NCBI GenBank assembly: GCA_044892505.1
Contig: CM097882.1
Span: forward strand, 438,898,001-438,962,000
Length of the DNA stretch: 64,000 bases
Direction of reading: 5' to 3'
From: Schmidtea nova
Lineage: Eukaryota
A program made the translations under genes and the position numbers. Position 1 is the stretch's first letter; the number at the start of each line of letters is the position of its first letter. The notes beneath the pieces were generated by a model, which saw only the letters and a program-made list of their open reading frames with translations, was not told the origin of the DNA and ran no database searches. This document shows, one piece after another, positions 1,344 to 60,798 of the stretch.

Positions 1344-2347
1344 TGTTGGATGACGAGGGAAGACGCATAGAAGCATTCAAAGTCAATAAATATTATCATA
1401 TTGGCAACAATAGATACCGAATAAATATATATCTAGAAAAGTAACCCCCGATCAAATCTCAGCTATCTCAATCTCAATCATTCAAAGTATCAATTGTCCG
1501 TCCCAATCGTTCGAAATCACTTTCAAAAGTAACTCTCTAAAACTCTGATCAATCATTAACTATTGTCTGTCATCAATCAAACTCAAAACCTGTCTAATCC
1601 TTCATTTGTGATCATCAATTAAATCATTGTCTAACAATTTACAACCCTATCTTTGTGATCATCATCTGACTAATTAGTGAATTTTATTTTATCCCCACAA
1701 ACAATCAAAACTGTTATTTTATTAAATTATGAAAAATTTTGTAGTTTAAAACTTTATTTTATTATTAGTTAGATTTTATTATTTTTTATTATTGTAAAAA
1801 ATTTTTTATTTTATTATTAGTTAAAATTTATTATTGTTCATGTGAATGTCGCAAAACAAAATTTATTAAATGTCGTGGCATAAATCGATTTAATTTTCCA
1901 AGTGAAAGGAATTTACTGTAAATAAAACAATTTTAATAAATGTCAGCACAAATTTCAAATTTTCCAGGTGAAAGGAATTTACTGTAAATAAAACAATTTT
2001 AAATGTCAGCACAAATTTCAGTATATAAGGCAATGACAATTTAGTCAAATTGCCATAAAATCAAAGGTAAAATTTTGCGGTTAAATTTTGCTCTCTCAGG
2101 TACAAATCATGTAGAGCTTTTAAAATCGACCGGTTGGTCAAAAACATATAAAATTTAAAACTTGTTGAAGTTAAATTGAAGGTGTGAAAGTATAGAATAT
2201 CTATTTGTACACAATTATCGGTAATAATTTTGTTAATCTTGTTATTAAATAAATCTTATTAACAAACGTTTATTGTCTTAGTTTATTTATATAGGAACCA
2301 CCAACCCCCAGTTGAGATTTCAAATACACATATTTGAGACCTCAACA
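1344..2347 (+). repeat. 5' LTR (1004 bp)
   Basis: Starts TGTTGGATG, ends CTCAACA; no difference from the 3' LTR seen by eye; ~65-bp tandem duplication (1892-2020) just before TATATAA (2022-2028). Confidence 0.97.
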
Positions 2348-2349
2348 TT

Positions 2350-2367
2350 TGGTGCCGTGAACCGGGA
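2350..2367 (+). promoter_or_regulatory. Primer-binding site, tRNA-His type
   Basis: TGGTGCCGTGA 2 nt after the LTR, complementary to the ...UCACGGCACCA 3' end of eukaryotic tRNA-His(GUG). Confidence 0.85.
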
Positions 2368-2597
2368 CAATAAAATATTATAATATCAATCGGGGGATAG
2401 GAATTGCGATCAGAGGGATAGTGTAATATATTTTGGGAAATATATCTATATTTAAATATTAATTGACCAAAATTAAACTGAAATTAAAGATATAAACACA
2501 TAAGGTTAACAATAACAAAATAGGTAGAAAGATTAAGAAAGTCGATATAAAATCACCTGAAATATTGCACAATTTAAGAAAAAAAGTAATCTACAAG

Positions 2598-3798
2598 ATG
2601 AGTAATAACAGTACAAGTAGCAGCAATAGTGGAAATAACAGTAATACAGAAAACACCAACAGTAATCATAATTTTATAAAACATTACCAATAGAATCATA
2701 TAAAGGAGACCCTGAAAAGTTCGACGACTTTTTTGCCGAAATCGCACAATATGCAGAGGCTTGCGGATGGACAACAAATGAATTAAAACAACGAATCCCA
2801 TTATATTTAAAGAGATATGCGTTACAGGTATATAATAATTTAGCATGCAAAGGCATCAATTATAATGAATTAGTAAAAAACCTTAGAAAAGAAATAGTAA
2901 TAGATCGAGATTTGCAAAAAATAAATGTAGAAGTAGATACCAAGGAGCCAGAGAATCAGTAGGTGAATATATATACACGATAACAGAATTAGCAAAAAAG
3001 GCATTTGGTGCAGGAGATCACACTAGTGAATTAATTGAGGATCAGTTTTGGAACAGAATCCAAAAATATTTATACAAAGCATTAATTACAATTGAGTATG
3101 AAGACTTAAATGAGTTAGTTCATAAAGCAAAACGTATTGAAGCAATACAAAGAGATAGATTTAAACCAGAGATAGATGCTGTAGAAATTGAAAGACAACC
3201 TGAGGTAAAGCCTGAGTTGAGAAATAAAGATGATAGCATCCCTTGGGAAAAAATGAAACAATTATATTTGAATTTTGTTAATAATAGACGAAGAGTTAGT
3301 CCAAGTAGAAGCCAATCACCTGAAAAAAGGGGAAGGTTTAACAGTCCAGGAAATAAAAATTTCGATAATAGAAATAATTTTAAAGATAGTTATAAAAGAA
3401 ATAATAATAGAGATAGTTTTAGAGACAATCGTTTTGATAATGATAGAGACAACATAGACACTTTTAGACATAGTCGTTCTAGTTATAACAGAAACAGTTA
3501 CAATGGATACAATAGAAATAATAGAGATAATCGCTTTGAATATAATAGAAGAGATAATAGATATAGAGATAATTCGAGAAATAGACAGGATAGCCCGGTA
3601 AGGCGAAATATGTATAATAATGATGGTAGAGATAAAGTAAATTTTAATGGACAAATAAAATGTTATAATTGCCAGAGGTATGGGCACTTAGCAAAAGTAT
3701 GCAATAAACCACGAGCTGATTCACCAATTGGAGTAAGATTTAAAAATGAGCCTGAGATAAAACAGGTAAATAGTGCTGAGCTTGAGATAAAGAGATAA
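2598..3798 (+). pseudogene. gag: Gag with RN-rich low-complexity region and CCHC zinc knuckle, frameshifted
   Basis: CYNCQRYGHLAKVC at 3661-3702; capsid-like segment FFAEIAQYAEACGW...IPLYLKRYALQVY; several single-base shifts. Confidence 0.85.
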
Positions 3799-4232
3799 AA
3801 TAATTTAAGATAAATAATTTAAGAGAAGAATTAAAAGAATTTAAAATTCAATATGGAAGACTCATTGAGAGAAAACTTGAAATGTCTATAAATGAATTTA
3901 ACACTTTTACAAATGAGGTAGATATTTATAATGATGAGTTAAAAGAAATTAGAGAAGCAGATGAAATATTTCTTACAGAAGAAAATAGACAAAAAGAATT
4001 AATAGAGGAATTTAAAGAGGTATTGTATAAGCAACCATTTGATGACAATGAAACATTATGAGTAAATAATAAAATACAGGTTAATGTGCATGATTTAAAG
4101 AAGCTTAGAAATTTAATACCAATGATGGTAAAGAGACAAAATGTAACGAGAGTATTTGAATTAGAAATAGAAATAAAAGAGATGTTGAAATGTTATGGAG
4201 AATATATAAGAAAAAATGAAAAATTGCATGAA

Positions 4233-4470
4233 ACACTAAATGTAACGATTGAATCAAATGATAATTATTTTTTAGTATTAAACAAAATTTGCATCCTTGC
4301 ACTAAAGTGAGTAAATTAAAACGAATGGCAAGAGCCAAATGGCCAGGAACCATAGGAAAGAGAGATGTAATAAAATTATATTTTAATGGAATAGAACTAT
4401 TGAATGACGAATATTTAATTGACTATGGGATAAACCCAGTAAGTGATAATATTGTGATAGCTAGTATAGA
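4233..4470 (+). CDS. Ubiquitin-like domain without di-Gly, inside the retroelement polyprotein (one frameshift near 4290)
   Basis: TKVSKLKRM...KLYFNGIELLNDEYLIDYGI aligns by eye with ubiquitin TIENVKAKI...[20 protein letters not shown]. Confidence 0.7.
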
Positions 4471-4705
4471 AAAGCAAAGGATAAATGAAATAATGACACC
4501 AGCACCGTCAGTTGAATTGAGTATAAATGAGGAAAATGATTTTGACAGGTTATTCAGAACATGGGATAAATCACCTAGTGAAACAATGAAATCGATAACG
4601 GGGGAAGAAATTATATTTAAACCTATAGATGATAAATATAGTAAACTACAAGAAACAATAGAAAGAATAGCTGACGAAGCAAAAACGAAAGATGCAGAAA
4701 CATCA

Positions 4706-4732
4706 AAGCGAGGTAGAGGAAGACCTCGAAAA
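4706..4732 (+). CDS. AT-hook motif
   Basis: KRGRGRPRK contains the canonical RGRP core with basic flanks. Confidence 0.8.
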
Positions 4733-4839
4733 TCAGAAATTATAGAAAAATCAGAGAATAGAAAGACAGCAGAACGATTAAGAGAGATTGCAAATCAACA
4801 AAGACATGAACAATCAGAGTATCAAGATGATAGTAATGA

Positions 4840-5200
4840 CGTAAACAAAATAAAAGAAGTAATAAAAGCAATGAATATTAAGCTATTTCCAGAAACAAAG
4901 CCAACAGTACTAATTAAAAATATAACTGAAAGGATGATGTTAATTAAAAAGGATACTAAAGAACTAGCCACAGAGGAGGCAAATGAAAAAACAATATTAA
5001 AAATCCTGTTTAATACAGGGATAGATAAAGATAAAATAATAACGGCCAAGGCATACTTGGCCGCAAGATATAAAAAGCTCATAAAGGAAAATCCAAAAGA
5101 GCAATTAGAAAAAGTAGCAACAATGATGTTTAAAAGATTGAAAGTAGAGGCAATACCATGGATAAAAAAGAAAGGAGGATGGAAAGTATTATATGATAAA
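4840..5200 (+). CDS. Bcl-2-like domain
   Basis: BH2-like PWIKKKGGW (W codon at 5159; cf. Bcl-xL PWIQENGGW) about 35 aa after degenerate BH1-like ILFNTGIDKDKII (cf. LFRDGVNWGRIV). Confidence 0.7.
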
Positions 5201-5280
5201 AATACGACGAATAAAGAGAGTGATACAGATGAGGTAATAAAACAATTAATAAAGAAAGCAACAGTAAAACCAAAGACAGA

Positions 5281-7140
5281 GAGTAAATCGATAACCTCCA
5301 TAGTAATAGTCATAATCACTTTGTTATTAGATTTAATCAAGGGGGGGGGCAATGCAATGGTAGCATATGATTGTCAAAATCCAAAGTGGGGACAAAAATA
5401 CTCGCTGTTAGATGTTGAAAATTGCCCTGAAGCAAATCCAACTAAATTAATCATGTCAGAGCCTCAAATATTCCATGTTTATCAAGAATCAGACTTTATT
5501 CATACGGAGGCTAAAGAGTGTATAGTAAAGTACCAGGAGGAAGCATATATATGTCATGCTGGGGCAAGAACAGTGTTAAAACCTACGTGGACACCCGAAG
5601 CAGTAATATTGTCGCCAATAGAGTGTGAAGATGCATTCAAAACAAATAAAGTAAAATATAGCGGTCATAAAGAAATCGAACTAGAAGCAAGGATAGGAGC
5701 AAAAATGAGACAAGATGTAAATGTCGTGGGATGGACATCAAAAGGTGGATATTGTGAAAGAGGGAGAATATACAATATAGGGTGAAAAACTGAGTAATGT
5801 TGTAGTAAGGAGACACTACATGGTAGAACTGAGAAAGTTCAAAGCATCATTCGACAGCAGCTCAAAGAAAATGATGATATACAAATTTTGTACATTAGAA
5901 GAATCTTATTGCGATACAGGAGAATCAATGCTAATATACAAAATAGATAAATACGATTGCCAGTTAACAAAATTAAAATCATTAAAGTTTAGGGAAATCA
6001 AAGGAAAACAGTTCACAGAAGTAGACTCAAAAAGAGTGAGAGATCAAAAAAGGAAAACAACAATTGTACAAGAAAAAGATACACCAACAATATATATGTC
6101 AGAATCTGAAAACGAAGCAATGAGGTTCGTTAGTAAAAGGAAAAGTGTAAAATGTGGTAAGGAAATAATACAAACTAATTATGAAGGGATATACATAAGT
6201 AAAGAAGAAGTCAAAGATGCAAAACAAAAAGTAAATTAATTCGACGTCAAACTTGCATCATATTTCAACAATAAAATCGATTTTTTCTATAATAATCAAC
6301 TAGTACAATTAGATAAAGTATATCAATCAACAATTATGAGCGATTGCAAACTCAACAGAGAAATATTAAGGACAAAAATGGCAGTCGCGGTAACAAACCC
6401 AGATTTAATGGCACCAATAATCTTCTCAGAAGAAGGAACATTTGCAAGGATAGTAGGAGAAGTGATACAGACATTTCAATGTAAACCTGTTAGTGTATCA
6501 TTAGCAACAAACAATCAGTGCACAAAAGAGCTACCAGTAATATATAATGGAGAAAAGGTATACCTTCAACCAATTACTAGAATACTAACAGAAAAAACAT
6601 ATATACCGAGAAAAATAGAAAAATGCACTAACTTATTAGACCCATTATACAAAATAAATGACGAAATGTGGATATCTATGTCAGATAGAAAGGAGGCAAT
6701 GAAACCCCTCAAATTAGAACTCATAAAGTTAGAAAAAAGATTAGAGTTTAAAGAAATCAACGATATGGACAGCAATGGTATATATACAAGAGAAGCTATA
6801 GAAAGTGCAAGAAAACACATGCTATTTCCAAACGAAAAAGAAAGAGTACTGTCAATAATGGTGAACAGAGTTATCGAAGGAAGTTACGGAGGAAATTACA
6901 ACTTTGATGTAAGAGTAGAAAGTAGCATATAAAGTACTATATAGCATATGGGGATATTTTGCAGTCCTTGGAAACATGTTTTCTACAATCTTAGGTATAT
7001 ATTATACGGTTGCATTACTAAAAATGATATGTTCTTCTCTAGTATCACTGAGACAGCTAAAACAAGTATTTGGAAATTCATATAAATTATTAGCATGTTT
7101 GTGCCCATTTATAGCTAAATATCTTAAATCGGCGAAACAC
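5281..7140 (+). pseudogene. env: Envelope glycoprotein, chuvirus/herpes-gB (class III)-like; disrupted by frameshifts and in-frame stops
   Basis: Hydrophobic SITSIVIVIITLLLDLI then AYDC...YSLLDVENC; GEVIQTFQCKPVSV, CTKELPVIY...YLQPITRIL, GIYT...LFPNE; TM WGYFAVLGNMFSTILGIYYTVALLKMI. Confidence 0.85.
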
Positions 7141-7439
7141 GACAAGGAAATACGTTTAATAAAAGTCCAAAGGAATGAAGAAAGGCAATTATTGGTAGAT
7201 GATGAAAACGATGAGGAAATAATTAAAGCACATATATCACATGAAGGAAATGTACCACAACAAGGACTATATGAAAACCAAAGAGAACAACTAAAAGAGC
7301 TACAAGAAAATATAGAAATCAAAATTCCTAGAGAAAACAAGAATTGTCACTGTGAACCTAAAAAGATATATGGTTGTTATAGCTTAGAAGTCGAAACAAT
7401 GGAACGATTAGATGCAGCAAACGAAGCAAGACCAAGACT

Positions 7440-10400
7440 TAAAATAATTATAAACAATATAATCATAAATGCATTAGTAGATACAGGAGCAGCAACATCC
7501 TTAATTAGAGAAGATCAACTGACAGATGATCAAAAAAGAAATATTATGAGCACAACGGATAAAGTAGTATCGCTATCAGCACATTGTATTCCACTAAAGG
7601 GAGACATAGAACTAATAGTCGAAACACTAGAACAGGTAATAAACCACATATTTAAAGTGGTACAAGAATGTTATAGCATATATATATTGGGAATCGATAT
7701 ACTCAACAAGTTAGAAAACTGCATCATAGATTTAACAGATAATACGATAAAGAGAAAAGCAATTAAACATAAATCCAAGTTCACAGAAGTTGTTGCATTA
7801 GAAGCATTTGAATTGGAATATGAATGCGATCATATAATTCCCTTAAAAGTTAACATCAAAAGTGAGGACACTTTTATTTTTGAGCCAGAAACGGCAATTA
7901 TACAAAATCAGAATATAATGCTAACCAATGAATGCGTAATTCCGAGAAAGGGAATAATACCATTGAGAATAGCAAATTATGAAAAAAGTAATGTTAAAAT
8001 ACACAAAGGTACGAAATTGGGAAAATTATTCAAAGGTGAATTAGAGAAAACGTACGAAGTCAGTGAGACAAGCGTGATGAATGATAACGACAAGGGAGTA
8101 GTCGAACCTAGTAAGATAAATAATATAAAATCATATGACAAAGTAAAAATTAATAATAAATACTTAACAATAACACAACAAACACAACTACAAACATTGA
8201 TAGATAAATATAGTGATGTTTTTGCAAAACACGAATTTGATCTAGGAGATACCGATATAATCAAACATGTAATAGATACAGGTAATGCTAGACCAATAAA
8301 ACAAAGACCATACAGCGTACCATATAAGTTAAGAGAGGAAATAAAACGACAAATCAAAGAACTAAACGATGCAGGTGTAATAAAACAGAGTTTTTCACAG
8401 TGGGCATCACCCATTGTACCCGTTAAAAAGAAAGATGGAGAAATAAGAATGTGCATTGACTATCGCAAATTAAATGATGTAACAGTAAAAGACTCATACC
8501 CATTCCCAAAAGCACAAGAGCAATACGATAAACTTAGGGATGCTAAGTATTTTTCAGTCATTGATGCCAATAAAGGGTATATGCAAATTCAAATGGAAGA
8601 AGGAGATGCGGAAAAAACAGCATTTGTTATTGAGGATGGTTTATATGAGTACACACGACTACCTTTTGGGTTAACTAACGCACCAGCTACATTTCAGCGT
8701 TTAATGAACACAATATTAGTAAATGTACAACACTGCGCAGTTTACATGGATGATATACTAATATCATCAAAAACATTTGAGGAACATTTAAAAGATATAA
8801 CAAACGTACTTGAGAGACAAAGAAAAGCAAGGATAAAAATTAAACCAACCAAATGTAAATGGGCAGAACCATCAGCATTATTTTTAGGGCATATAGTTAC
8901 AGTTGAAGGGATAAAACCAAATCCAGAAAAAATAAAAGTTGTAAACAAATTCCCGATACCAAAAACAGTGCAACAAGTACAAGGGTTTTTAGGTTTAACA
9001 AGCTATTACCGTAAATTCATACAAGATTATGCAAAGATAGCATCACCTATAATAGAACTAACAAAAGGAATTAAAACAAAAGGAGAATGCAAAGATGTGT
9101 TAATAGTACAAGAAATTAACAATAAAGTTAACAAGATACAAAAGAAGTGGACAAAGGAACATCAAGAACATCATTCGATAAACTAAAAGAAAGATTGATA
9201 ACAGCACCAGTGTTAAGGTACCCAGATTTCGAAAAACAATTTATAGTAATGACGGATGCCAGCGGGAAAGCCGTAGGAGCAGTCTTAGGTCAAGAGGAAG
9301 AGAAAGGGAAAGATTACGTAATAACATATGCTAGTAAAACATTAAAAGGAGCACAGCTGAGGTATTCAACAATAGAGAAAGAATGTTACGCAATAGAATT
9401 TGCCCTAAAACAATTCAAACCATACATATATGGAACTGAAGTAATAATAAGAACGGACCATAAACCATTAGAAGGCTTATGGAAACATAAGGATACATCA
9501 AGTAGACTACTAAAATGGGCAATGAAAATACAAGATATGCACTTGAAAATTATATATAAACCAGGTAGAATAAACAAAAACGCAGATGCACTGTCAAGAA
9601 TACCAGAATTAGGAGCACTTGAAATATTTGCACTAGTAGCAGAAAAGCCAATCGATATATATGAGTAACAGATGAAAGACCTAGAAATCAGCAAAATAAG
9701 AAATGAAATCAGAAAAGAAAGTAATTCAAAGTATAAAATATCAAAGAGATTAGTAGTAATAGAGGATTTCAGTGGTAAACAATTAATAGTAGTACCTCAA
9801 AAATTAAGACAAATACTTCTATTACAATATCACGATGGAGCATTAGGAGGTCACTTATCATCTAGAAAAACAGCAAGTAGATTATTACAAAAATATTACT
9901 GGAAGAGTTAAAGAAAGATGTTAAGAGATGGTGTAACGCGTGTACAATATGTGCAACAAGAAAAAATACAGGCACAAAAACAAAAGCGCCGTTACACCCT
10001 ATTCCAGCAACAACATCACCAATGGAACTATGTGCAATGGACTTCCTATGTAAATTACCTACTACAATTAATGGGAATAAACATATACTAGTATTTAGTG
10101 ATTATTTTACTAGATGGGCGGAAGCATTCCCAACAAAAGATGAAACAGCAGAAACTGTTGCTAAATTACTCATAGAAAAAATAATTTTTAAGATAGGTAC
10201 ACCTAAAAGATTATTAACAGATAAAGGAACAAATTTTACTAGCGAATTAATAAAAAGGGTAGCTAGCATTTTTAACATGCAAAAGATCAACACAACAGCG
10301 TATCACCCTCAAACTGATGGGCTAGTAGAAAGGTTTAACGGGACATTATTAAGCAGACTAGCGGTCTTTGTAGGCAAAAATCAAAATGATTGGGACGAAT

Positions 10401-10900
10401 ACGTAAGTCAATGCACATACATCCATAATATCACTCCAAATGAAACAACAGGGTATTCACCGTATTACTTAATGTTCTTAAGAGAACTAGCAACACCAAT
10501 AGATACAATTTTTGAACCTCGAGTATCACAATATTTAGACGCACCAGATTATGTCACACTAATGCAGGAAAAACTGCAAGAAGTGTATAAAGTAGCTAAT
10601 TTAAAAGTCAAATTTAGACAAGAACAGTACAAAGCCGACTATGACAAAAATAGTAAACCACATAACTTTAAAGTAGGTGATAAGGTTAGACTTATGTCAC
10701 CACATGTAGGAAAAGGAAAAACAACAAAGTTAGCAAGACCATATAAAGGTCCATACGAAGTAGTAAAAGTAATAAATGAGAATCTACACCTACAAAAGCA
10801 CAAAAATGAGGATCCAATAGTAGTACATGTTAACAGATGCAAGTTAGCAGAGGCAGAGGTCACGATAGATAAACCTCACAAGTATAATCTTAGGTCTCAT
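7440..10900 (+). pseudogene. pol: Pol: aspartic protease, RT, RNase H, integrase
   Basis: LVDTGA (7480), MCIDYRKLN, YMDD (8743), TDAS...YSTIEKECYA, HHCC (9831-9952), D..D..E, GPY and YNLRS; frameshifts near 9170 and 9905, TAA at 9666. Confidence 0.97.
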
Positions 10901-10903
10901 AAC

Positions 10904-11688
10904 AAGCTAATAATATCGGCTATCTTCTTAACAATCATAACAGTTGTTGGTTCAACCAAAACATTAGAATTTGACAAATTATTAATAAAAATATCAACAA
11001 ACGAAGTGAGGGTATTTATCATAAACACGGGAGTAATCGACATATACATGCAAACACCAGATAAAGAAAATCCAAAGATGATAAAAAGAAAAGAGGACAG
11101 TACAACCAAGGAAATCGAAAGAGGAAACTATGTTAACTTCACAAAACTAACACCTAATACAATATACAGAATCTGCATACAGAGAGACACAGATACAACA
11201 ATATGGAGATGCAAGAGAATAAAAACAGAACAGAATAAAAAACAAAGATCCAAGCATAACAAAAACGACGACAATAACACCAGATAGAACAGAAAGCACA
11301 AGAACAAAGACAACGACAACAAACAATATATTAAATATCACTGCACATATAGACAAAATACCAACAAACACTAGAATAACAAAATTCCAAAAACAACAAC
11401 AAAAACAAAAACATATCAAAATAAAACAAGGAAAACCAATAGTTACATAACTTAGAGGAACTACAAGCATTTCAAAAAAGGGATAAAAAGCCACATTGGC
11501 CATATTATGTAATCACAGCATCGATAATAACATTAGCAGTCTTAGCTTTAGTAACTAGCACACAAATATACAAAAAGTACAAATGGAAAAGGCAGCGGTA
11601 TTGGAGCCGACTGGTCAAAGATGTACCAGGACATTTCCATTTTGATAAATACATACCTGGCATATACACAATATCAACACAAGTATGA
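10904..11688 (+). pseudogene. Type I membrane module fused after integrase: signal peptide, FN3-like domain, Thr-rich stalk, TM, tail ending STQV
   Basis: LIISAIFLTIITVVGS is in frame with integrase; FN3 signature FTKLTPNTIYRICI; after frameshifts TKTTTITPDRTESTRTKTTTT, TM YYVITASIITLAVLALVTS, KKYKWKRQR, TGA at 11686-11688. Confidence 0.7.
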
Positions 11689-11809
11689 TGCAAACTGGTC
11701 AATAATATTTATTAAAATTATATATATGTATATCTATATTTTGGTGTATGAGGGAAAACCAGCATTACACTTCAAATTTAAAATTGATTATTTAATTTGT
11801 AGAAAGAAA

Positions 11810-13669
11810 ATGTACAATAGCAATCAACCCGACAGACAATCAAATAGACAATTCAATCAGCACCCAAACAAACAATTCAAACAACACAACCAACCCAATC
11901 GTCAACACCCATACAAACAAAGTCAATCCCACAGTCAATCGTTCGAAAAGTACGATTAAATGTTCAAACAAAACGAGCAACCCGCATCTTATCAAAAATA
12001 CACCTGTTTTATAAACAAACTGGGAAACAGTTTTTATAAAAATAGCCAAAACAAAATCAGTACAGACGGACAACCCATCACCATAAGAAATTTCCCTAAC
12101 CAAGTCTGCACACCCAACGAAACGAAGATAGACATCGAAGAGAGAGAACTGAGCATAATCAAATTTAATGATGCTCGAAGAGTCAAACTCCGAGAACTCA
12201 TTGGGAGTTTCGACCAATATAAAAATGTGGATAAAGCGGTGGTAGAAGGTAAAAAAGTACCTCACCAGTTAACATTCCACATCACAAAAACCGAGGTATC
12301 GATTTGCCAAAACAAAATCCCACTTATGACAACAAGCAATTGCTCGCTCGTAATCAAATTAATCAGAAAAGACAGGAGCATGAGTAACGATTTTAACGAG
12401 TTACTAATACAAATGAATAGCCTACCCTGCGTTATTGCGATAGAAATAATTTATATTCCAACAATGCCAAATCCGTTCAGGCAACTAGAGAGCATTCCAT
12501 CATCTATCAAATTAACAGAAGATCTAATAAAAAGAAGAATCTCATTCACCCAACAAGAACTGTCTATGGAAGAAAGGCATGAATTAATAGTGTTTCTGGA
12601 TATCAAGTTAATAACGGACATCAACGGAAACCAAAGGCCAGTAGAAATCAGCATAAGAGACGATCAGGGCAGTACAATATATGATAAAAAGATAACCCCA
12701 AGATCAATGATCAGAGATTTCAAAATTGAAAGAACCAGAGCAACTAAAGAAAACATTATAGGAAACGAGGATGAATATCAGGCATTAAATGATGTCAGAA
12801 GCATATTATATGGAAAAATAATAATAGGATTCGGAATAATGGATAAACTCAAAACACTGGCAATGAAAATCAATTATGTCATGGGGATCCGAGAGATGGA
12901 AGAAGATCAGTTCATGTGCACATTCGTGAAGAATGTAGAACCGCACAAAATTAAACTATCCAACTTGGCATACCAAGTTGTAAGTCATCATAAACGATGG
13001 TTCAAGGACAAGAGGGTAAACGAATTATTAAGAAGACCAGAACCATTTTCAGGATCAGAAACCACCAAATTGGTCAAAATAATATACATGATAACAGAAA
13101 CCCAATGGGAAGAGGTAATTAAATGGAACCAAAGAAGATTCCAAGAAGAGATGGATCCAAGAAATAGAGCAAACATAGAAAATAAAGGACAATCCAATAA
13201 CGATAACAACTGGGAAAGTGAATCAGAAGGAGAGGAGGAAGAAATTCTACAAACATCTACAGAAGAATCAACAGCTAGTGACGATGACTTTATTTTCATC
13301 AGCGAAACAAGAACAACCAACATGGAAATGAGGGAAACAAAAAGAGAACCAGTCGTACGACAGGAAAAAATGGAGGAATGTGACCTGGATCCAGAAGAGG
13401 AATATTTTTCACTTGAAGAAGAAGTAGAAATGGATCAGATACCGAGTACAAGTTATCAAGAAACCGATATAGGGTCAGAACCCGAGATCGAAATATTGCC
13501 GGAAGAACTCACAACCACAGAAAAGGATACCTGCGTTGGAAAACAATTCAGGAAGGACCTTTTAACATTCAGAAAAGAACAGAGGAAGACAATCATCCAA
13601 GTGAAAGAAAAAGAAATCGAACTCGTCATATCAGATAAAGGTAATGAGGGCATTACCTTGACGGCCTAG
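11810..13669 (+). CDS. Accessory 3' ORF: Q/N-rich N-terminus, REX4/ISG20-like DEDD exonuclease fold with degenerate active site, acidic C-terminus
   Basis: ATG 11810 in frame with 11960 across one TAA (11957-11959); IVFLDIK...EISIRDDQGSTIYDKKITP...ILYGKIIIGFGIMD...IKLSNLA at 12587-13092. Confidence 0.7.
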
Positions 13670-13676
13670 GGAGGTA
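13668..13676 (+). promoter_or_regulatory. Polypurine tract
   Basis: AGGGAGGTA immediately before the 3' LTR. Confidence 0.8.
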
Positions 13677-14680
13677 TGTTGGATGACGAGGGAAGACGCA
13701 TAGAAGCATTCAAAGTCAATAAATATTATCATATTGGCAACAATAGATACCGAATAAATATATATCTAGAAAAGTAACCCCCGATCAAATCTCAGCTATC
13801 TCAATCTCAATCATTCAAAGTATCAATTGTCCGTCCCAATCGTTCGAAATCACTTTCAAAAGTAACTCTCTAAAACTCTGATCAATCATTAACTATTGTC
13901 TGTCATCAATCAAACTCAAAACCTGTCTAATCCTTCATTTGTGATCATCAATTAAATCATTGTCTAACAATTTACAACCCTATCTTTGTGATCATCATCT
14001 GACTAATTAGTGAATTTTATTTTATCCCCACAAACAATCAAAACTGTTATTTTATTAAATTATGAAAAATTTTGTAGTTTAAAACTTTATTTTATTATTA
14101 GTTAGATTTTATTATTTTTTATTATTGTAAAAAATTTTTTATTTTATTATTAGTTAAAATTTATTATTGTTCATGTGAATGTCGCAAAACAAAATTTATT
14201 AAATGTCGTGGCATAAATCGATTTAATTTTCCAAGTGAAAGGAATTTACTGTAAATAAAACAATTTTAATAAATGTCAGCACAAATTTCAAATTTTCCAG
14301 GTGAAAGGAATTTACTGTAAATAAAACAATTTTAAATGTCAGCACAAATTTCAGTATATAAGGCAATGACAATTTAGTCAAATTGCCATAAAATCAAAGG
14401 TAAAATTTTGCGGTTAAATTTTGCTCTCTCAGGTACAAATCATGTAGAGCTTTTAAAATCGACCGGTTGGTCAAAAACATATAAAATTTAAAACTTGTTG
14501 AAGTTAAATTGAAGGTGTGAAAGTATAGAATATCTATTTGTACACAATTATCGGTAATAATTTTGTTAATCTTGTTATTAAATAAATCTTATTAACAAAC
14601 GTTTATTGTCTTAGTTTATTTATATAGGAACCACCAACCCCCAGTTGAGATTTCAAATACACATATTTGAGACCTCAACA
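13677..14680 (+). repeat. 3' LTR (1004 bp)
   Basis: Same length and apparent sequence as 1344-2347. Confidence 0.97.
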
Positions 14681-22984: not shown

Positions 22985-23717
22985 TGTATATTAAATTTTT
23001 CCTGACAGAATATTTTTGCTTTCTTTTAAATACGCATACTATGATATTTAAAAAACAAAGAAAACAAAAATTAAATAAATTTGTTTTATGTTTAAACAGG
23101 TTTAATCAATAGAATACCCAAAATATAAAATTTCTATGTATTGTTTTTTTGGTATCGATTTTTTTTAATGTTTTAAGAGAGAGAAATGAAATAGAAATCT
23201 GAAATAAACACAAAAAATTATAAAACGTATTTTTATCTTGCAGAGTAAAAATGAAATCCAATTGGTTTTCGTATTGCCTACCACTACTAAAACGTGTTTC
23301 AAAGAAATTTGCAGTGACACTCATAATTCAAAAATCGTTTGGAAAAAAACGTATCAAAAATATAACCATCTCTTTTATCCTTTTCATGTAATATTTTTTC
23401 TGTTTTGCTACATTTTATTTTCTAAAATGAGTAGTCCATTTGTATGTTCGTTTTAAACTATAAAAAAAGAAGACATTTATTTTTTATGTACCTACTGTTT
23501 GCACTCTTCTAACACGAAAATAAAAAAAGAAACTTTTTCGGAGTGATAAGTTTACAATTACAATTTTGAGGAAATTAATGAGTAAAATAATAATTGTGTA
23601 TTTTTAAATTACTAATCCATTAATCATTAAAATATCACGGTATGTATTTATAATTTGGTATTAAATTTTGTTGAATATTTACTTGATTAAAATCTTTGTT
23701 GTTAGCCCTATTAAACA

Positions 23718-25698
23718 ATGGAAAGCAACAATTTATCTAACTACGAAAACGAAACCAAAAAGACATTATGGGACTTCTTTTTGCGTAAAGGAAACGATGC
23801 CGCGAAATGCAAGAATTGTAATAAAACTTTAAAATCCGTAGGAGGTTCTACCAGTGGACTACACTATCATCTTAGAAGTCAGCATCAAATTAATTTACTA
23901 AAGCGAGATAAACCAGACCCTTCTACGCAATTCTCTCAAAATAAAAGCGACTGCGCTGTGAGCACTTCAAAGGGTGGTATTATGAATTATTTCAGAAACG
24001 TAGTTGATGATACTCTTCCTGCAGTGATTTCTAGGATGGTAGCAAGGGATGGGTTACCTTTTGAAAAGTTTTGTACCTCTTGTGATTTGAGAAAATTATT
24101 AATTGCAAAAGGATATGATGTCCCAAAATCAGCAAATTCAATCAGAAAAATTGTAATGGATTACGGAGAAAAAATTAGGAATGAAGTACGTGGAGAAATT
24201 TCAAATCATAGCAAAAATGGAAGCAAGTTTAGCCTCACGTTTGATGAATGGACATCCATCAAAAACCATCGTTACATGAATGTAAATGTCCATGTTGAAA
24301 AACTGTTTTGGAATTTAGGCTTAACGCGGTTGCAAGGATCGATGCCTGCAGAAAAATGTTGTGAAACTCTGGAAAAAAAACTTCAGGAATTTGGACTAAA
24401 TTTTAATAGCGTCGTAGCGATAACTACAGATGGGGCAGCAGTAATGAAGAAGGTTGGTGTAGTTTTAAATATACATCATCAGCTATGTTATGCGCATGGA
24501 ATCCAGCTCGCGGTGGTTAAAGTTTTTTTACAAAAGAAAAAGTGAAATAATTGAATTAGCAGAAGAACCAAGTAGTTCCATAGAAGATACCGAAGATTAT
24601 TATGATGAAGATGATGATCTTAATGAAAATTTGATTATAGTAGTAACGGATGATCCAATAGTTCAATGTGATATCTCCCATGAAGAATTATTTCCTATTA
24701 TAAACAAAATACGAAGAGTAGTGAAAATATTTCGAAAGTCACCTACTAAAAATGATGACACTCTTCAAAAGCATGTCATCAATGAATTTGGATCTGAAAT
24801 TTCTTTAATATTGGATAGTAAAACCCGATGGAACAGCTTATTAGCTATGCTGGAACGTTTCTTCAAATTAAAATCCGCTGTGAGAAAAAGTTTAATCGAC
24901 TTGAATGTTGATATCAATTTTTCAGAAAATGAATTAAACTTGGTTAATGAAATGATAAATGCATTGGAACCAATAAAATTGGCAGTTGAATCTCTAGGCT
25001 CCTCAGATTTTACATTATTAAGTGCTGATGTAACACTCAAATTTATGCTTGATGAATTATATGAACAGAATACTGTTCTAAGCAGAGAACTTCAACGTGA
25101 ATTAATCCTTCGAATCGAAGAACGTAGAACAAATTACTCAGATGTGCTTCAGTTCTTACAAAATCCTTTAGAATATGAAATATCAAAGGATAACACAAAT
25201 TATGGATTATTTAATAAACTAAATAAAAGCGCAATAGTCAAAACTATTGTTTCAATTATTGAGCGCTTGGTAATAAATATTGATATAAATAATGAAACAG
25301 AAACTGAATCACCTGAAGATGAGACAATAAATTTGTCCGTAACCGTACCACAACAGTTGACAATGAAAGAACGGTTAAAAATCGCCATTCAAAGGAAAAA
25401 TGAAGTTAATTTTGACACTTTGGCTACTTCACCAATTAAAAACAAAAAGAAAATAGAGAATATCATCAAAAAGGAAATGAATTCTATTGCGGAGGAAAAA
25501 CGCCTTGGAACATATTTGGAATTAGCACAAAAATATTTGCATACAATAAAACCAACGAGTGTGGAGTCAGAAAGAGCCTTTTCTGCTACAGGAAAATTGT
25601 GTACGAAGATTAGATCAAATCTTAATGATCAAACAATAGATACAATTTGTATTTTACGTGGATATTTTGGTAAGCAGAAACATTTAGTTGGTACTTGA
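23718..25698 (+). CDS. hAT transposase with BED zinc finger; one +1 frameshift in a T7 run near 24525
   Basis: WDFF..KCKNC..TSGLHYHL..QH; FDEWTS, TTDGA, CYAH, TRWNS, SVESERAFS. Confidence 0.95.
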
Positions 25699-31178: not shown

Positions 31179-34100
31179 GAAGTATGCTGGCGATTTTAGC
31201 TTCATTGCTCCTTGGCTGTTGATCCACGCGTTTAGCTCATGCGAAGTGAATTCCTGGGCATTATCCAAGACGAGGCATTCCGGGACTCCGAACCTGGTGA
31301 AAACAGTTCGTAAACACGTGATCACTGACTTCCTCGTTTTATCGGATGTCTTGAAGGCTTCAATCCATCCCGAACCAGCCTCTACAATAATGAGCACGTC
31401 GCCCACCTCTTTGATGTGGGCCCAATCCATATGTACTCTTTGGAATGGTTTTGCTTCTGGCCATTTGTGAATGCTCTTCTCTGGGCGAGGATGTAGTTTC
31501 TTGCAAATTGCGCATAACCTAATGAAGTTGTCGATGCATTTCTTCATTAGTTTTGGTGGAATAAATAGACGTGACCCGTGGTAAAGCAGTCCATCTTCAA
31601 TTGTTAGTCTGTCTGATATTTTCTTGAATGGCATTTATGATTGTGAGCATTTCGACCAATTGCCTTTCTTGATGCGACGCATGATATCTCTGGCCAACTC
31701 GTTTAGCGATGTTTCCAATCTGACCTCTGAGGCATTTAATAAGCCCTCGCTAAACTGGACCGTGAAAACACTCAATGTGTTCTTGGTTTTGATTTCCTCG
31801 TTTGCTTCCTTTTCATCGATGAATTTTAGTCTTGATAGCGCATCTGCATGCGGGATCTGCTTTCCCATAACATAGTACATTTCATAATCGTACTCCATCA
31901 ACAGCATGGCCCACCTTGAGATTCGATTGGATGTTCACCTTGGAATCGGTGATTCGCTACCGAATAGGGATTAGAGTGGTTGGTGGTCTGTATTCACCTT
32001 GAATTTCCTCCCTAATAAGAAGTGTTGTAGTCTAGATATAGACCATACTATGGCTAAAGCCTCTCTCTCTATGTTAGAGTAATTTCTTTCGGCATCCGAA
32101 AGTTTTCTGGAAATGTAGATCACAGGATGGCCATCTTGGGTTAGGACAGTTGCTACGGTCGTCAATGTAGCTTCCTTTTCGAGGCTGTAAGGTTGCACAA
32201 CTGGATACGTTGAAATTTCTTGTTTTGTTGCTTTGAACTGGTTCGAGCATTCCTTGTTCCAATCGAACTTTACACCTTTTTTTCTCAATTCATTGATTAC
32301 TCTTGTTTTGTCTGAAAAATTTGGAATTAACCTACCAAAGTTATTAATTAACCCGATGAAAGATTCTAATTCCTCCTTGCATGTTGGTTCTTTTATATTG
32401 TTTATTTTGCTGACGAGACTTTTATCAGGTGTGATACACTTTGACGATATTTCGAAACCCAAGAAGGAAACACTATCGGTAAGTTCAATAGTCTTTGCTT
32501 GGTTGATTGTAACTTTTTTCTCTTTAACGCGCAATTTTACCGTTTGCAGTCTTTTCCTTAGTGATTCTTCATTCTCGGCATATATCAGTACGTCGTCTTG
32601 GTAGATTAGTATTCCTTTGATATTTTTAAGTATTTGCTCCATTGTCCTTTGAAAGATTGCAGAGGCGTTCCTCATACCCATATGTAATCTATTTACATAA
32701 AACATACCTTTTGTCGTATTTATGCACGATATCTCTTTTGCTTCATCGTCTAATTCTATCTGCCAATATGCCGATGTGAGATCGAGCTTTGCAAATTTGT
32801 TGGAATTCTTTAGTTTTGAGAAAATTGTTTCGACGTTCGAAATGGGGTATGCATCGGTCTTTATCTTTTTATTGATATGCACTTTGAAGTCAACGCATAA
32901 TCTGAGGTCGCCATAGCTCTTTTTTACCCAAACCACGGGCGAAGAATTCAGTACGGGTTTGGTGCACGGAGAGATTACTCTTAATCGCTGTAACCTTATT
33001 AGTTCATCATTAACCTTATTTTCTAAAGCTAATGGTATTGGCCTAGCCTTACAGAACATGGGCTTCACATCGTCGATTAAATCCATAGAGGCTTTTATAC
33101 CTTTGATTGCTGGTAACACTTGAGATTCTGTTGTCTTCGTGAGTTGACACTGTAAGATTCCGTGTCGTGTCTGCTGCAGTATATCCACTCCTATTAGTCC
33201 GAAGTCCTTCATAGATTGAATGACTGTGATTGTTACCGGAAGCACTTGCTTTTCCCATTCCACAGTTGTCAGAAACGAGCCGTAGCATTGCATGATATGC
33301 CCATCGTAGGCTTCAAGCTTTCTTCTTGTCTTGTCAAGATTCGGTCTTCCCATGTCTTCCCACATCTTGGATGATATGATTGATACAGATGCCTGGTATC
33401 TTTTTGCATTTTCACTATCGTTGTACCTAGGAGGACAGGGTTAATGTCACTTGTAATATTATTTGAAGTGAACTGGTTGATGTATTGCGTGTCACTTTCA
33501 TCGGCTGACGATGTCTGATCTGCGAATGTTCCGTGTATCGACTTTGTCGAAGATCTGCAAGCTTTCGCAAAATGATTCATTCTGTCGCAATTCGTACACT
33601 TCTTTCCATATGCCGGGCATTTCTTTGGCTCGTGTATTCCGTCACAGTAATGACACCTTTCATTTCCTTTCTCTTCGAATTTCCTTGATGTTCCAAGGTT
33701 TGATCTTTTTTTTTAGTGAAATTGATTTCATCGGTCGTTGAGGTAATTCTAGGTTTTGTTCCATGCTGGAGGGATATGAACGTCGATATCTCCTCATATG
33801 TTTGCATTTGTGCGAGGATCTCGTTGCATGTCTGAATCCCAACACTCATTTGCAGCAAAATATTTTCCTTAGCATTGATGTCAGATATTCCTGATATCAA
33901 TGCCATGAGGAGCATATTCTCGCTGGGGTCAGTTGAGTCCTTCAATTTCTTGAAGTCACAATATATAGCAGCCTTCTTAAGTCTGATATAGAAATCTGCT
34001 AATTTCTCTTTCGGTTCCTGTCTTAGCTGATAAAATCTTGCTCTCTCAGCTATTACAACTTTGCTTTTCGGCTGTGTGTGGTTTAATAGCATGGCTTTGA

Positions 34101-34308
34101 TCTCGCTGAACGTCATCTCCTCTAGCAATTTGGGAGAAGCCATATCTTGGATTTTCGTGAGTGCCTTCAGTCCACATACAGATATGAAGTTGTCCATGAC
34201 TTGTCTTGATTTGTCACTGTCGACCCACTTATTGGCTCGACTCATCGCACCGAAAGCGGTTAACCATATTTCGACATTGATGTTGTAATCTAGGGTCAAT
34301 TCTTCCAA

Positions 34309-34319
34309 TCGTGACGCCA
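34309..34319 (-). promoter_or_regulatory. PBS, tRNA-Ser(CGA)-like, overlapping the gag ATG
   Basis: TGGCGTCACGA 1 nt after the LTR; A+TGG forms ATG GCG TCA CGA (MASR). Confidence 0.75.
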
Positions 34320-34646
34320 TTGTTATAATGCACGCACAAGACTTTTTAAGATTCAAATTATATTTATTATACAATGATTAGATATTAAAACAAAATATTA
34401 AAACGATGATTACCACGATTATTGTTAATCATCATTGAAAAAATTATGATGGATGGGGAAGGAAAGGTTTGCACATAGGGTATGTTTTCAACACAGGATA
34501 CATTTGCAATATATGATATTTTTTCAACGTATGATAATTTTCAACAGACGATAATTTTCCAATATACGATAGTCTTTCGACATGCAATTGCTCTCAATGT
34601 TCAATATCTTATACACGATAGTTTGTCACAGAACAAAGTCAACCAC

Positions 34647-35223
34647 AGTAGTAGGATGTGAGCCATCAGATATAGGTCAAGACCCCCCTAGAAATTTTTT
34701 ATCTAGGACAATTTAAGGGCACTTTAAGGCCAAAAAGTAGGTCGATTTAAGGTCTCGATGAGCACAAATTAAATAGATCAAAAAATTTTAAGGTGAATTT
34801 TAAGTTAAATTATGTAGGCCAAATATAATTTTCAAAATTTTTCTATGTCAGAATTAATTAGGTCAATTTCAGATCATGATGAGGACAAATTAAGTAGGTC
34901 AATAATAATTTTCGAAATTTTTCTAAGTCCGAATTAAGTAGGTCATTCTAAGAATACTTTAAGGTCAACAACGTAGGTAAAATATAATTTTCAAAATTTT
35001 TCTATGTCAGAAATAAGTAGGTCAAATATAATAATTTTCTATGTCAGAATTAAGTAGCACAAAAAAAAAACTTGAAAATTTTTTCTAAGTCAGAATTAAC
35101 TATTAATGGACATAAAATTTTGTGACTCATATGGCATTGTAAGAGCAAGTTTAATAAATCCACTGCAATCAAGCTGCAAGATTAAAAAAGAGAGTAATTT
35201 GATTTTAAGAGTAATTTGATGTT

Positions 35224-35263
<40 letters not shown>

Positions 35264-35693
35264 TTTTAAAACTTTGATAATAACATTTAAAATTAACACT
35301 GGTCTATAAATCGAAACTATAATAAAAATTTGTACAAGAAAAAACTAAATTTGATAATTTTAAAATTATTTATGTAAATCACGCACTGTCAATTCTCCAA
35401 ATTAGAGTTATAACATCTTTTGTATCTACTTTATAACCTTGAATTATTTATTAACCTTGAATTACTTATTTTTCTATGTTAGAAATAAGTAGGTCAAATA
35501 TAATAATTTTCTATGTCAGAATTAAGTAGCTCAAAAAAAAAACTTGAAAATTTTTTCTAAGTCAGAATTAACTATTAATGGACATAAAATTTTGTGACTC
35601 ATATGGCATTGTAAGAGGAAGTTTAATAAATCCACTGCAATCAAGCTGCAAGATTAAAAAAGAGAGTAATTTGATTTTAAGAGTAATTTGATT

Positions 35694-35780
<87 letters not shown>

Positions 35781-35960
35781 TTTTAAAACTTTGATAATAA
35801 CATTTAAAATTAACACTGGTCTATAAATCGAAACTATAATAAAAATTTGTACAAGAAAAAACTAAATTTGATAATTTTAAAATTATTTATGTAAATCACG
35901 CACTGTCAATTCTCCAAATTAGAGTTATAACATCTTTTGTATCTACTTTATAACCTTGAA
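34647..35960 (+). repeat. Family C repeat: tandem ~20-25-nt GTCAGAATTAAGTAGGTC units, ~470-bp internal duplication and (AAT)n tracts
   Basis: 35040-35460 repeats at 35510-35960; inverted homolog at 62100-62780. Confidence 0.85.
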
Positions 35961-37281
35961 TTATTATATTAATGAACCAGTGTTCTTGATCCTTTTATTC
36001 GATTGATTGGAACTATAGTGCCTCCGTCATTTATATCTTTATATTGTAATTTATTAAATATATACATATATATATATATATTAAATTAATAATATACTTA
36101 AAAAATAACAAACAACCAGGAGTTGTTTAAAAAACCAAATAAAACCAGCAGAATTTAAAATTACAGAAAGAAAAATGCACTTGCAGCATTTCAAAGTAGA
36201 AGAAAATCAAGCACTTTAAGAAAATGTATTGAGATATAAATTTGCAACCTGCTACTGTTGTAGCACTACAAAAACTCAGAAGTTTCCCCACGGATACTAA
36301 AAAGAACAAGCAATGTTACTTAAAAATAAATATTCTATTAGTGTTTATTTTGTATTTTATCTTTTATCCAATTAAGACAAATACAGAACGGGGTACAGAA
36401 ATTCAGAGCCCCACAGGAACGCATCATGAAAACGAGTTTTTCTGTTGTTGATGTAAATTGTTTCTTGCAACTTTAATTTTTATTGATTTTCAATAAAACT
36501 TTATTTAGTGCAACATCTTCTTTAGATATTTTTGCAGCTAAGCTGTCATACAATGAATTTGTTAATTTTATCTGATATATAATCTAAAAAGTATTTCTTC
36601 TACCAAGAAATACATATTTTAGTCATAATACATTTGGACTGGTTTGACTTCTGTCTTGATTTTTCTTTTAATTTCTTCTTTCTTGTTTTCTTCCTCATTG
36701 ATTGGGTTGTTAAACATTTTATCGTAAGTAGGAAAATTTGCTTTGTGTGAATGCATTTTAATAGTTGTGACATTATCTAAAAAATTGGCTTTGTATTTAT
36801 AGTCACGAGTTTATGTCTTTGTCCAATGAAAATGACACATTCAAATTGTGTATGTTATGCATGTGTGTATGTCTTTGTTACATGTTTTATTGCATGTGTA
36901 TCTTTGTCACATGTTATATATAATTGATGCACGTGTGTGTATCTTTATGTAGTTAAATGTTTTAGTTAATGTCTTTATTTAAAAGGTTTATGTATTTATT
37001 TAATGTTTATGTCTTTATTTATATGTCAAATTATTTAAAAATTATTTTAATAAAACCTCCATATTAATAAAAAACATATTACTATTTAAAATAAAAAAAA
37101 CTAAATACTGAACTTTAATAAAAACTTATAAACAAACTAAAATATGAACGATAATACATTTATTAAATGAAAACTACAAATGGTAAATGCAAATGTTAAC
37201 ATATAGAAACATAAATAATATTAACAATAACAATAAATATATTTTCAATATATTGTTGCGGTGATGATTGATTGTAATTTG

Positions 37282-42500: not shown

Positions 42501-43800
42501 GTTTTGTTTATGTTAATGGTTAATTGTTGTTTGCCGTAAGTTTTAATGTTTGTGCCATTTGCTGCACATAGGTTGTAGTTTCCTTATTTTAAGGATTGAA
42601 ATAAGTAACTTGGTAACAAACTAACTATTGAATCGGAATCAACAAGAAAATTTATATTTTTGCTTTGCACCGTGAATGTTTCGTAGTCGCCAAATATCGG
42701 TGCTGTTATTGGAGACTTTAATTGTTTTCCGGATTTTTGTCGTGGAAAGTACAAGGTGTGTTGCACTTGAAAGCTTTTTCCTCAAATCTGTTATGAAAAT
42801 GACACCAATTTTCATTTTGTATGTAGTTGTTGTTTGGGTTATTGTAACGGTTAAAGTTTAGTTTTTGTTCTGTGCAATTGTTTTGATTGTTTTTTTTTGA
42901 GCTGGTTTTTTTTCGTTACTCTCGCTTGTACCTCTTCTAAATCGTTCCGGAGGTTCTTGTTTTCTGTTATGACCTCGTTGACTTTCTTTATTAAAGAGTT
43001 CAGTAGAAGGTTAGTATCGTTGTAAGGGTTGTCTCGTTCTTGGCGGTTTTCTTGCTTATTTTCCCACGGGGGCTGTTTTCGGTATGTTTTGCAAACTGTT
43101 GGGAATATTTCGTCATTTATTTTGTCCGCGATATCGGCTACTTTGTCGAGGCCTGTGCAGTCGTTTGTGGTTAAGATGCGCCTTATTTCTTGTGGCATTG
43201 CCCTCAAAAATAGGTCTTTCACGAAATCATTTTGACGAGCACTTGTTATTTTGGGTTGTAAAAATTCTAATTTGCTCTTTAGATTTCGCAGAAATTCACT
43301 TGGTTTGTCATTTCCAAGCTGTATATCTTTTAAGCAAGACTCCAATACTTCCCTCCTGTTCACCTTATATCTATTTAATAAGGTTGTATATAGTAAATTA
43401 AATGGGTCGTCACTTTTCGCTATTTCGTCAATTCAGTCTGCAATTTCATTTAAAATATGGCTAGGTAGGGCAGCTATTTTGTGGGAGCATAAACGTTTTG
43501 TAGATTTGATTCCAGACAGTGTCAAAGTTAGTTTTGAGAATTCTAACCATTTTTGGGGTGTGCCGTTCTCATCTGTAAAGTAATTTGAAATCTTTGTCTT
43601 GGAGTTTTTTATTGAATTTATGGTGTGATGGTTTTCAGGGGTGTAATAATAGTTGGTGTTCTATTGTTGAGTGGGTGTGGTTTCGTTGTTGTGTGTTTGG
43701 GGATTATTGGTTAGGTTTTGTTGGTTCGATGCCATTTGTCTTTATGTATAGTGTTGTTTTATTTGTTTGTTGTGAAAAAAATGAGAGTCGTTAAAAGATA
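39531..43800 (-). mobile_element. Decayed Ty3/Gypsy element; LTR pair not resolved
   Basis: Gag (MASNQQ ~43730; LGNDKPSEFLR), RT (GDYRTLN, AYLDDIL), RNase H (YSTFDRELLA), integrase (VHVDLVG, SDQGKQF); minus-strand PPT GGGGGAAG before TGTTATG at 39531. Confidence 0.92.
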
Positions 43801-48100: not shown

Positions 48101-48493
48101 TTTATGTGCAAATCATGGTTTTATGAATGAATGCGGAATGTATGGGAATTTAAATAAATGAGTGAGTGAATAAACCCAATTCATTGAAAAGCCAAAGGAT
48201 ATAATAAAATCAACCCTAGACGTATCGGAGTTAACTCAATGAATGGGGACCCGAATAAAACCACACAGACCTTCTATCGGTAGTGGTGGACCCGTGAATA
48301 AATAAGGGAATAGTAACCGCGAGGTTGCTCACCTGCCTTATCATTTCACAACGTTGATACAGTTCCAACATGATGAGTAGTTAGAGACACATCATGGGTA
48401 TCAGCAGGGGAAGCGTGTTTATCTTGGCGAGATTACCCTGACGTTTAACATCTAATATAATCTCTGTTGAAAGATCAGACCAGCACACCAGCA
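45168..48493 (+). mobile_element. Very large solo LTR-like element (3326 bp) with internal ORFs
   Basis: TGTTGG...CCAGCA ends; TSD CTGA; both ends homologous to 29647-31178; TATAAATA at 45572 with TCAGT about 24 nt downstream; ORFs 46731-47078 and 47497-48096. Confidence 0.85.
47497..48096 (+). pseudogene. Coiled-coil ORF homologous to 30219-30707, one in-frame TAA (47707-47709)
   Basis: Direct peptide similarity along its length. Confidence 0.75.
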
Positions 48494-48760
48494 CTGATAT
48501 CGATAAACTACAAGTGTTGAAGAAATATTTCCCGAAATTGACATTAATTAAATATAATTTTAAAGAAATTGAAGATGTTCCAGATAATATTTCATGTCCC
48601 TATAAAGATCATAATATATTTGAAATTCACCCACAAGCTATGATGGCAATTCGAAATCTTGATGCCTGTTTCCTGCGGGGCAAACAAATGCATTTACGTA
48701 TATCAAAAACAAATGTCATCCAATTAGCAATGGAGGAGGCGAACCACGCAAATACCACAA

Positions 48761-48778
48761 TGATGTCAGTAGTAGGAT
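48761..48778 (+). promoter_or_regulatory. Degenerate PBS, tRNA-Leu type, overlapping an in-frame ATG (48760)
   Basis: TGATGTCAGTAGTAGGAT matches the tRNA-Leu(CAA) PBS TGGTGTCAGAAGTGGGAT at 15 of 18 positions. Confidence 0.65.

Positions 48779-60796: not shown

Positions 60797-60798
<2 letters not shown>

Follow-up and report, generated by a model that had tools for sequence, protein, structure and literature searches.

A putative FN3 membrane protein module behind the integrase of a defective env-bearing Ty3/gypsy element in Schmidtea nova

Organization of the element and condition of the copy

We analyzed a 64,000-nucleotide stretch of the Schmidtea nova genome (contig CM097882.1, positions 438,898,001 to 438,962,000), referred to below as the window, in which all element features described here lie on the forward strand. 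A Ty3/gypsy LTR element of 13.3 kb spans positions 1344-14680 and comprises, in this order, gag, a Bcl-2-like domain, a gB/class III env and the protease, reverse transcriptase, RNase H and integrase domains (PR-RT-RH-IN), with the segment under study, an FN3 module, behind the integrase. The 5' LTR (1344-2347, 1004 bp, TG...CA) is 100% identical to the 3' LTR (13677-14680), and the flanking sequence holds the target-site duplication CAGT at 1340-1343 and again right after the 3' LTR. A TGG... stretch directly 3' of the 5' LTR (2350-2367) is a putative primer-binding site. The gag region (2599-3798) is in pieces and contains a CCHC knuckle at about 3655-3705 (zf-CCHC, E 2e-4, above the cut-off). 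Directly before the env signal lies the Bcl-2-like domain (4985-5182; Pfam Bcl-2, E 1.1e-5, 26.3 bits, below the cut-off of 31.4). Region 5291-7044 encodes an internal signal-like stretch, the gB/class III-type env ectodomain, which is in pieces, and the env TM; the signal-like stretch and TM were assigned by hydropathy and the env domain by its Pfam matches to Monjiviricetes_fusion (E 1.2e-43 and 1.9e-12), and this env also matches the env of two relatives introduced below, P0013 and P0017. Protease, reverse transcriptase, RNase H and integrase with its GPY/SH3 end, likewise in pieces, were located at 7423-10843 by Pfam and by tblastn with P0013, P0017, P0154 and P0151 as queries, PR-RT being in frame with the env C-terminus (ORF 6919-9186). 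The TG...CA LTR pair with its target-site duplication, the PR-RT-RH-IN order and the zinc-knuckle gag assign the element to Ty3/gypsy (Metaviridae).

Counted from the ORF list, the copy carries 14 breaks (10 frame shifts and four in-frame stops), although one of these may simply mark where gag naturally ends; with P0013 and P0017 as queries, tblastn placed frame changes inside env and pol as well. The element is a defective member of the GAG-ENV-POL errantiviruses with a gB-type env, its env lying between gag and pol and its ORFs being no longer intact. The identity of the LTRs despite the 14 interior breaks would fit either a recent mobilization of a defective copy in trans or assembly errors, and A-runs of at least five number eight in 11221-11490. 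Neither a second copy of the element nor any tRNA gene was found within the 64-kb window.

The segment behind the integrase

As the original prediction had it, the integrase reads through its usual tail end, YNLRS (10883-10897), for which a similar Y-x-L/F-R motif is present in nine of 11 FN3-bearing relatives. ORF 9881-11287 (stop codon at 11285-11287) contains the integrase core and the GPY/SH3 end and then continues in the same frame through the three residues HNK into LIISAIFLTIITVVGS at 10907-10954, a putative internal signal-peptide-like stretch (11-residue hydropathy 3.02). This is followed by a 93-residue domain of predicted FN3 fold (10955-11233) with one N-glycosylation sequon, which includes LTPNTIYRICI (11147-11179), again in the integrase frame.

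The Thr-rich stalk, the TM, the basic stop-transfer KKYKWKR and the terminal STQV that had been predicted to follow were all found in place in two other frames. The stalk (11223-11450) has 17 Thr among 66 residues, with 53% S/T/P in its best 30 residues. The third frame (11443-11688) encodes the TM (11506-11562; 19-residue hydropathy 1.96), KKYKWKR (11572-11592) and a cytoplasmic tail (11593-11688, stop codon at 11686-11688) with the class I PDZ-type end STQV. The chain is interrupted by two frame breaks, near 11230-11290 and 11390-11500, and we infer the join across them from relatives with the whole module in a single ORF rather than from a copy of the window's own element family. These two breaks are in keeping with the rest of the copy, since env and pol are also broken, and this broken copy is unable to make the FN3 protein whole. 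When the bases of 11230-11750 were shuffled, such a TM arose in three of 2000 shuffles and a TM together with an S/T-x-V/I/L end in none of 2000; for 11230-11460, an open frame of 66 codons appeared in 488 of 5000 shuffles and equal S/T/P richness in none of 5000.

Predicted fold of the ectodomain

Folded alone with AlphaFold, the window domain gave a model of seven strands with a pLDDT of 66.9. Its best Foldseek rows were nearly all FN3, with a best E value of 1.5e-3 that falls short of E 0.001, and FN3 entries made up almost all of the 50 rows returned by VIA-align (Z 9.1, rmsd 2.8 over 78 residues). Atlas assigned fn3 at 0.87, which is a lead only, and the Pfam fn3 score of 13.7 bits (E 0.074) missed the gathering cut-off of 25. 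The FN3-type domain that had been proposed after the integrase from its F strand is borne out by the predicted seven-strand sandwich and by the top Foldseek and VIA matches. Cytokine and growth-factor receptors are among the structural matches, and a viral structure library returned phage tail and giant-virus FN3 proteins with 6-14% identity, a likeness in fold only. For one relative, P0007, whose ectodomain was modelled with two relatives, the prediction consists of two seven-strand domains in tandem plus a linker helix (pLDDT 85.6) and matches fibronectin (Foldseek E 2.9e-7; Atlas 0.90); this ectodomain models as two FN3 domains.

Relatives carrying the module

The set of relatives comprised 262 proteins, namely the best 150 of 22611 and the best 120 of 407 with eight common to both. 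FN3-like repeats behind the integrase in a single ORF were found in 11 of these (P0003, P0006, P0007, P0013, P0017 and P0151-P0156), one to three repeats per element with an identity of 10-27% among elements. Ten of the 11 extend to a TM followed by 24-115 residues of tail, whereas P0152 ends early, and nine have a signal-like stretch with a hydropathy of at least 2.0, P0153 and P0155 being below this threshold. Only P0013 and P0017 combine env, pol and the FN3 module in one ORF, the other ORFs starting within or just before pol; the single-ORF state is that of the ORFs as given. An extra protease-like domain sits between integrase and FN3 module in P0003, P0013 and P0151. The repeat profile had no match in the other 251 of the 262 proteins and found two repeats outside its training set (P0156 residues 70-146, iE 2.5e-5; P0153 residues 642-705, iE 7e-4). 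Among the relatives' repeats themselves none of 1000 shuffles scored as high, a comparison that is partly circular, since a motif had served to pick the repeats.

The integrase tree had 49 rows, one for the window and 48 for members of the 262-protein set, of which 34 were the best with long matches and 14 were chosen in addition. All 12 FN3 rows, i.e. the 11 relatives and the window, fall inside one 18-row clade with a support of 100/98, within which the window has a long branch and no firm place. Termination at YNLRS, named beforehand as the case against the module, did not occur in 11 of the 17 other rows of this clade. Six of the 18 rows are without FN3; five of them end without signal or TM, which may reflect truncation or loss, and P0012 has a signal and TM with a different ectodomain.

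Several further observations concern the polyproteins of these relatives. Extra aspartic-protease-like domains after the integrase occur in P0002, P0003, P0008, P0013 and P0151, and ankyrin repeats in P0003. P0156 has an apparent second module of signal, FN3 and TM in its N-terminal part (residues 45-200), before the protease, which suggests that duplicating the module or shifting it to another place in the polyprotein is possible. Hydrophobic signal/TM-like segments after the integrase are also present in P0012, P0055, P0024 and P0084, around ectodomains without a match to the FN3 profile, and the slot behind the integrase may take other cargo too. P0152 is labelled as a bacterial MAG at its source, yet encodes a gypsy pol of this clade and is probably animal DNA in the bin.

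The PDZ-type C-terminus

With T-Q-V before the stop codon, the C-terminus of the module in the window fits the class I PDZ-binding motif, defined as S/T-x-hydrophobic at the C-terminus (PMC4810129). The motif had been called from the window alone, and the relatives, examined later, are therefore a fair test. A T-x-V/L/I end is present in seven of the 10 full-length modules versus six of the 252 other proteins (Fisher p 1.2e-8), so that the end class called in the window recurs among its relatives at the sequence level. With sister rows counted once, a class I end occurs in four of seven lineages (p 1e-5 to 4e-5), compared with 15 of 535 internal triplets; it is missing in P0154, P0013 and P0017. 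Tails with the class I end differ in length and are mostly without mutual similarity. Because the end is kept on such dissimilar tails, it looks to be under selection, possibly after a single origin, all carriers belonging to one clade. HTLV-1 Env binds DLG1 through a class I motif, which helps cells to fuse at virological synapses, and interference with junctions or with survival signalling is a frequent effect of viral PDZ motifs (PMC4810129).

Origin of the module

The original prediction had seen in this segment a captured fragment of a cell-surface receptor whose host donor could be found. This part was not supported: no host donor turned up in searches that depend on shared words or whose top rows were taken up by integrase matches, and that included no flatworm proteome. 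The 10-27% repeat identity and the variation in repeat number from one to three argue that the FN3 module is an old resident rather than a fresh capture. Likewise, the suggested descent from an LRR-FN3 receptor was rejected, as the signal runs straight into FN3 and the Pfam scans of the window ORF and the relatives contained no leucine-rich repeats ahead of it. With the post-integrase part as query, none of two candidates at 73-235 aa and none of 64 at 820-2340 aa qualified (236-819 aa lay outside this search), and the FN3 part had no local match among the best 150 of the representatives search, which integrase matches filled. Searching the PDB by sequence gave no match for the window FN3 domain and two fibronectin monobodies (E 1 and 1.7) for the relatives' profile, while bacterial and archaeal genomes yielded 317 pattern matches, none of which was confirmed.

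The similarity of the window FN3 domain to those of the relatives is weak. It scored 7.0 bits against their profile, a value reached by 16 of 2000 shuffles (10 of 1000 in a further run), with the F strand alone aligned, and it was not the top match among the 1013 ORFs of the window. The hhalign probability was 7.7%, pairwise searches gave nothing, and BLASTP with P0152 was not significant. The cysteine pair of most relatives' repeats is absent from the window domain, which has a different pair near its end. A single old capture with fast divergence is possible, as are several captures into the same slot, the latter because of the weak profile match and the missing cysteine pair.

Comparison with known elements

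GAG-ENV-POL elements with a gB-type env have been described from flatworms, nematodes and bryozoans (PMC13524379). Among these, Smed_errantivirus_3 resembles the window element in its gypsy pol and in a gB-type env between gag and pol, and a hand count over one env stretch gave 99 of 126 identical residues between the two, while nematode env rows in the same part of the supplement look unrelated to the window by eye; this likeness by itself points to a planarian as the probable host. The listed locus of Smed_errantivirus_3 is 14.5 kb long, close in size to the 13.3 kb of the window element, and has three intact copies (PMC13524379), whereas the window copy is broken. The pol C-terminus was examined for chromodomains in that study, and the terms fibronectin, exonuclease and Bcl-2 have 0 occurrences in its main text (PMC13524379).

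In the giant planarian elements Burro/GYPSM1, as in the window element, a BCL2-like motif precedes an env that lies in frame between gag and pol, and a mononegavirus-like fusion protein and accessory domains within one polyprotein are likewise common to both (PMC6431247). Ankyrin repeats, which belong to the Burro cargo, are found in relative P0003. Unlike Burro, which exceeds 30 kb (PMC6431247), the window element measures 13.3 kb and is without BIR, MATH, ankyrin and dUTPase domains by Pfam; judged by sequence it is Burro-like, not Burro. An FN3-TM module is not mentioned for Burro in the excerpts of PMC6431247. The bdelloid Vesta/Juno elements are similar in having extra ORFs after pol that encode small TM proteins and DEDD-type exonucleases, but these are separate ORF3s with DEDDy/RNase D enzymes (PMC5408684), whereas the TM protein of the window lies in the integrase frame and its exonuclease hint is ISG20-like. 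The term fibronectin has 0 occurrences in the main texts of PMC5408684, PMC6431247 and PMC6338049.

A membrane protein other than env is also known from the Drosophila MDG1 group, in which sORF2 has been tied to soma-to-germline transfer at cell contacts (PMC11952523). sORF2 is short and fusogen-like and replaces env, in contrast to the window protein with its predicted folded FN3 domain, its position in the integrase frame and a full env beside it; an sORF2/FAST-like fusogen was ruled out on these three grounds. Two viral type I glycoproteins, HTLV-1 Env and rabies G, also have a PDZ motif at their cytoplasmic end, that of HTLV-1 Env being of class I (PMC4810129); in both it resides on the fusogen itself and not, as in the window element, on a separate FN3 protein. 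Hookworm Atlas virus offers a parallel in the two glycoproteins that end its single Gag-Pol-Env polyprotein and divide attachment and fusion between them; unlike the window element it is a belpaovirus with phlebovirus-derived class II GN/GC, and FN3 is mentioned there for the topology of GC domain III alone (PMC9094657). The class of element is thus already known, while an FN3-TM protein behind the integrase, or elsewhere in an LTR element, was not found described in the literature covered; the original description of Burro, its supplements, Repbase, figures and subscription journals may annotate such a module.

Proposed function and alternative explanations

The segment is best explained as the last polyprotein module of a GAG-ENV-POL errantivirus-type element, a small type I membrane glycoprotein that is old and clade-wide. 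The original prediction anticipated a second surface protein, and one that combines an FN3 fold with an S/T-rich stalk, a TM and a PDZ-type end of class I is supported; we regard the module as very probably real and selected. In an intact relative, translation would run on through the integrase into the FN3 module, where the hydrophobic stretch would open a second ER translocation event, as a similar stretch before env (5291-5347) must, so that by this topology the polyprotein would cross the membrane again behind the integrase. Signal peptidase would free the FN3 N-terminus in the lumen. Either the protease of the element itself or an intramembrane protease of the host would release the integrase, and transfer would halt at the TM and its basic residues, leaving FN3 and stalk luminal. 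The product would carry between one and three FN3 domains above a glycosylated stalk; through its tail it could bind host PDZ scaffolds and so be placed at one membrane domain or at junctions.

By analogy, the protein may serve as an adhesion or attachment partner of the class III fusogen, focusing budding or direct transfer at contacts between expressing and target cells, a role to which we give about an even chance. Several class III fusogens work without a partner, which counts against it. In planarians, expression of gypsy elements is found mostly in differentiated tissues, outside the stem cells (PMC8532177), and would thus supply a reason for directed transfer. A fuller version, for now tentative, is a two-part entry system that this invertebrate retroelement lineage would have built out of a single polyprotein, in which a virus-derived class III fusogen and a host-derived FN3 attachment protein act together, the PDZ-type tail aiming particles at junctions and elements from differentiated cells infecting stem cells.

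We favour the attachment partner over three other readings. The protein could instead manipulate the host as an accessory, i.e. a receptor decoy or PDZ-scaffold competitor in the membrane of the expressing cell that acts on signalling, polarity or survival and has no direct part in entry. The Bcl-2-like and exonuclease-like regions, as other host-type regulators of the element, speak for this possible but less probable role, as do the receptors among the structural matches of the window FN3 domain, the apoptosis and ubiquitin domains of Burro elements (PMC6431247) and the common disturbance of junctions and survival signalling by viral PDZ motifs (PMC4810129). A fixed ligand trap, in turn, fits poorly with repeats that are only 10-27% identical and vary in number, similarity to any single receptor is absent, and synthesis one-for-one with env and pol would rather suit a structural protein. 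Since env and FN3 module have the polyprotein and the secretory route in common, the module might also regulate env, either by occupying the entry receptor (superinfection exclusion) or by restraining or chaperoning the fusogen and thereby sparing the producer cell from fusion. We consider this unlikely, as it poorly explains the kept PDZ-type end and retroviral interference is usually the work of env itself.

The reading in which the segment is a functionless passenger, captured recently by chance from the host or stitched together from frames in A/C-rich DNA, is largely refuted and by far the least probable. It would account for the two breaks in this copy, for the ease with which a 66-codon frame arises (488 of 5000 shuffles) and for the weak homology to the relatives, but it is opposed by the same architecture in ten single ORFs across the clade and by the 0 of 2000 shuffles with both TM and PDZ-type end, and breaks are just as frequent in env and pol as in the tail.

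In the usual picture, env-bearing gypsy elements consist of gag, pol and one fusogen, to which a conserved second surface protein with a host-type adhesion fold and a polarity-targeting tail would add. What this protein binds would show which cell is the target and where exit takes place, and in an animal propagated by adult stem cells this bears on how tissue-expressed transposons return to the stem-cell genome. Movement between cells outside Drosophila is still open for gypsy elements (PMC13524379).

The 3' ORF and the remainder of the window

A separate ORF follows on the forward strand at 11810-13669, with a Q/N-rich start, a putative ISG20-like exonuclease-fold region and an acidic end; it carries one in-frame stop (11957-11959). 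Searches against the PDB gave weak matches to ISG20 (E 0.016) and ISG20L2 (E 0.068), Pfam provided no support, and no match was present among the 150 related proteins (best 150 of 22611). Exonucleases of this fold are expected to read D-x-E at the first motif. Because D-I-K stands in its place here, the product may be an inactive RNA-binding fold. ORF 11555-11959 also contains a hydrophobic stretch, at about 11690-11750, which we discounted as part of the AT-rich spacer that separates the STQV stop from the ATG at 11810.

Other transposon remains lie at 23715-25698, 31971-34377, 40098-43432, 48442-50036, 52504-53031 and 56348-58868 and include a BED-finger hAT transposase, several gypsy-type gag/pol pieces and ORFs with DUF7041 and DUF7047. 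The stretches 34799-35965, 60790-60880 and 62055-62430 hold AAT microsatellites together with a family of 80-bp repeats that is in part inverted in one of two regions relative to the other.
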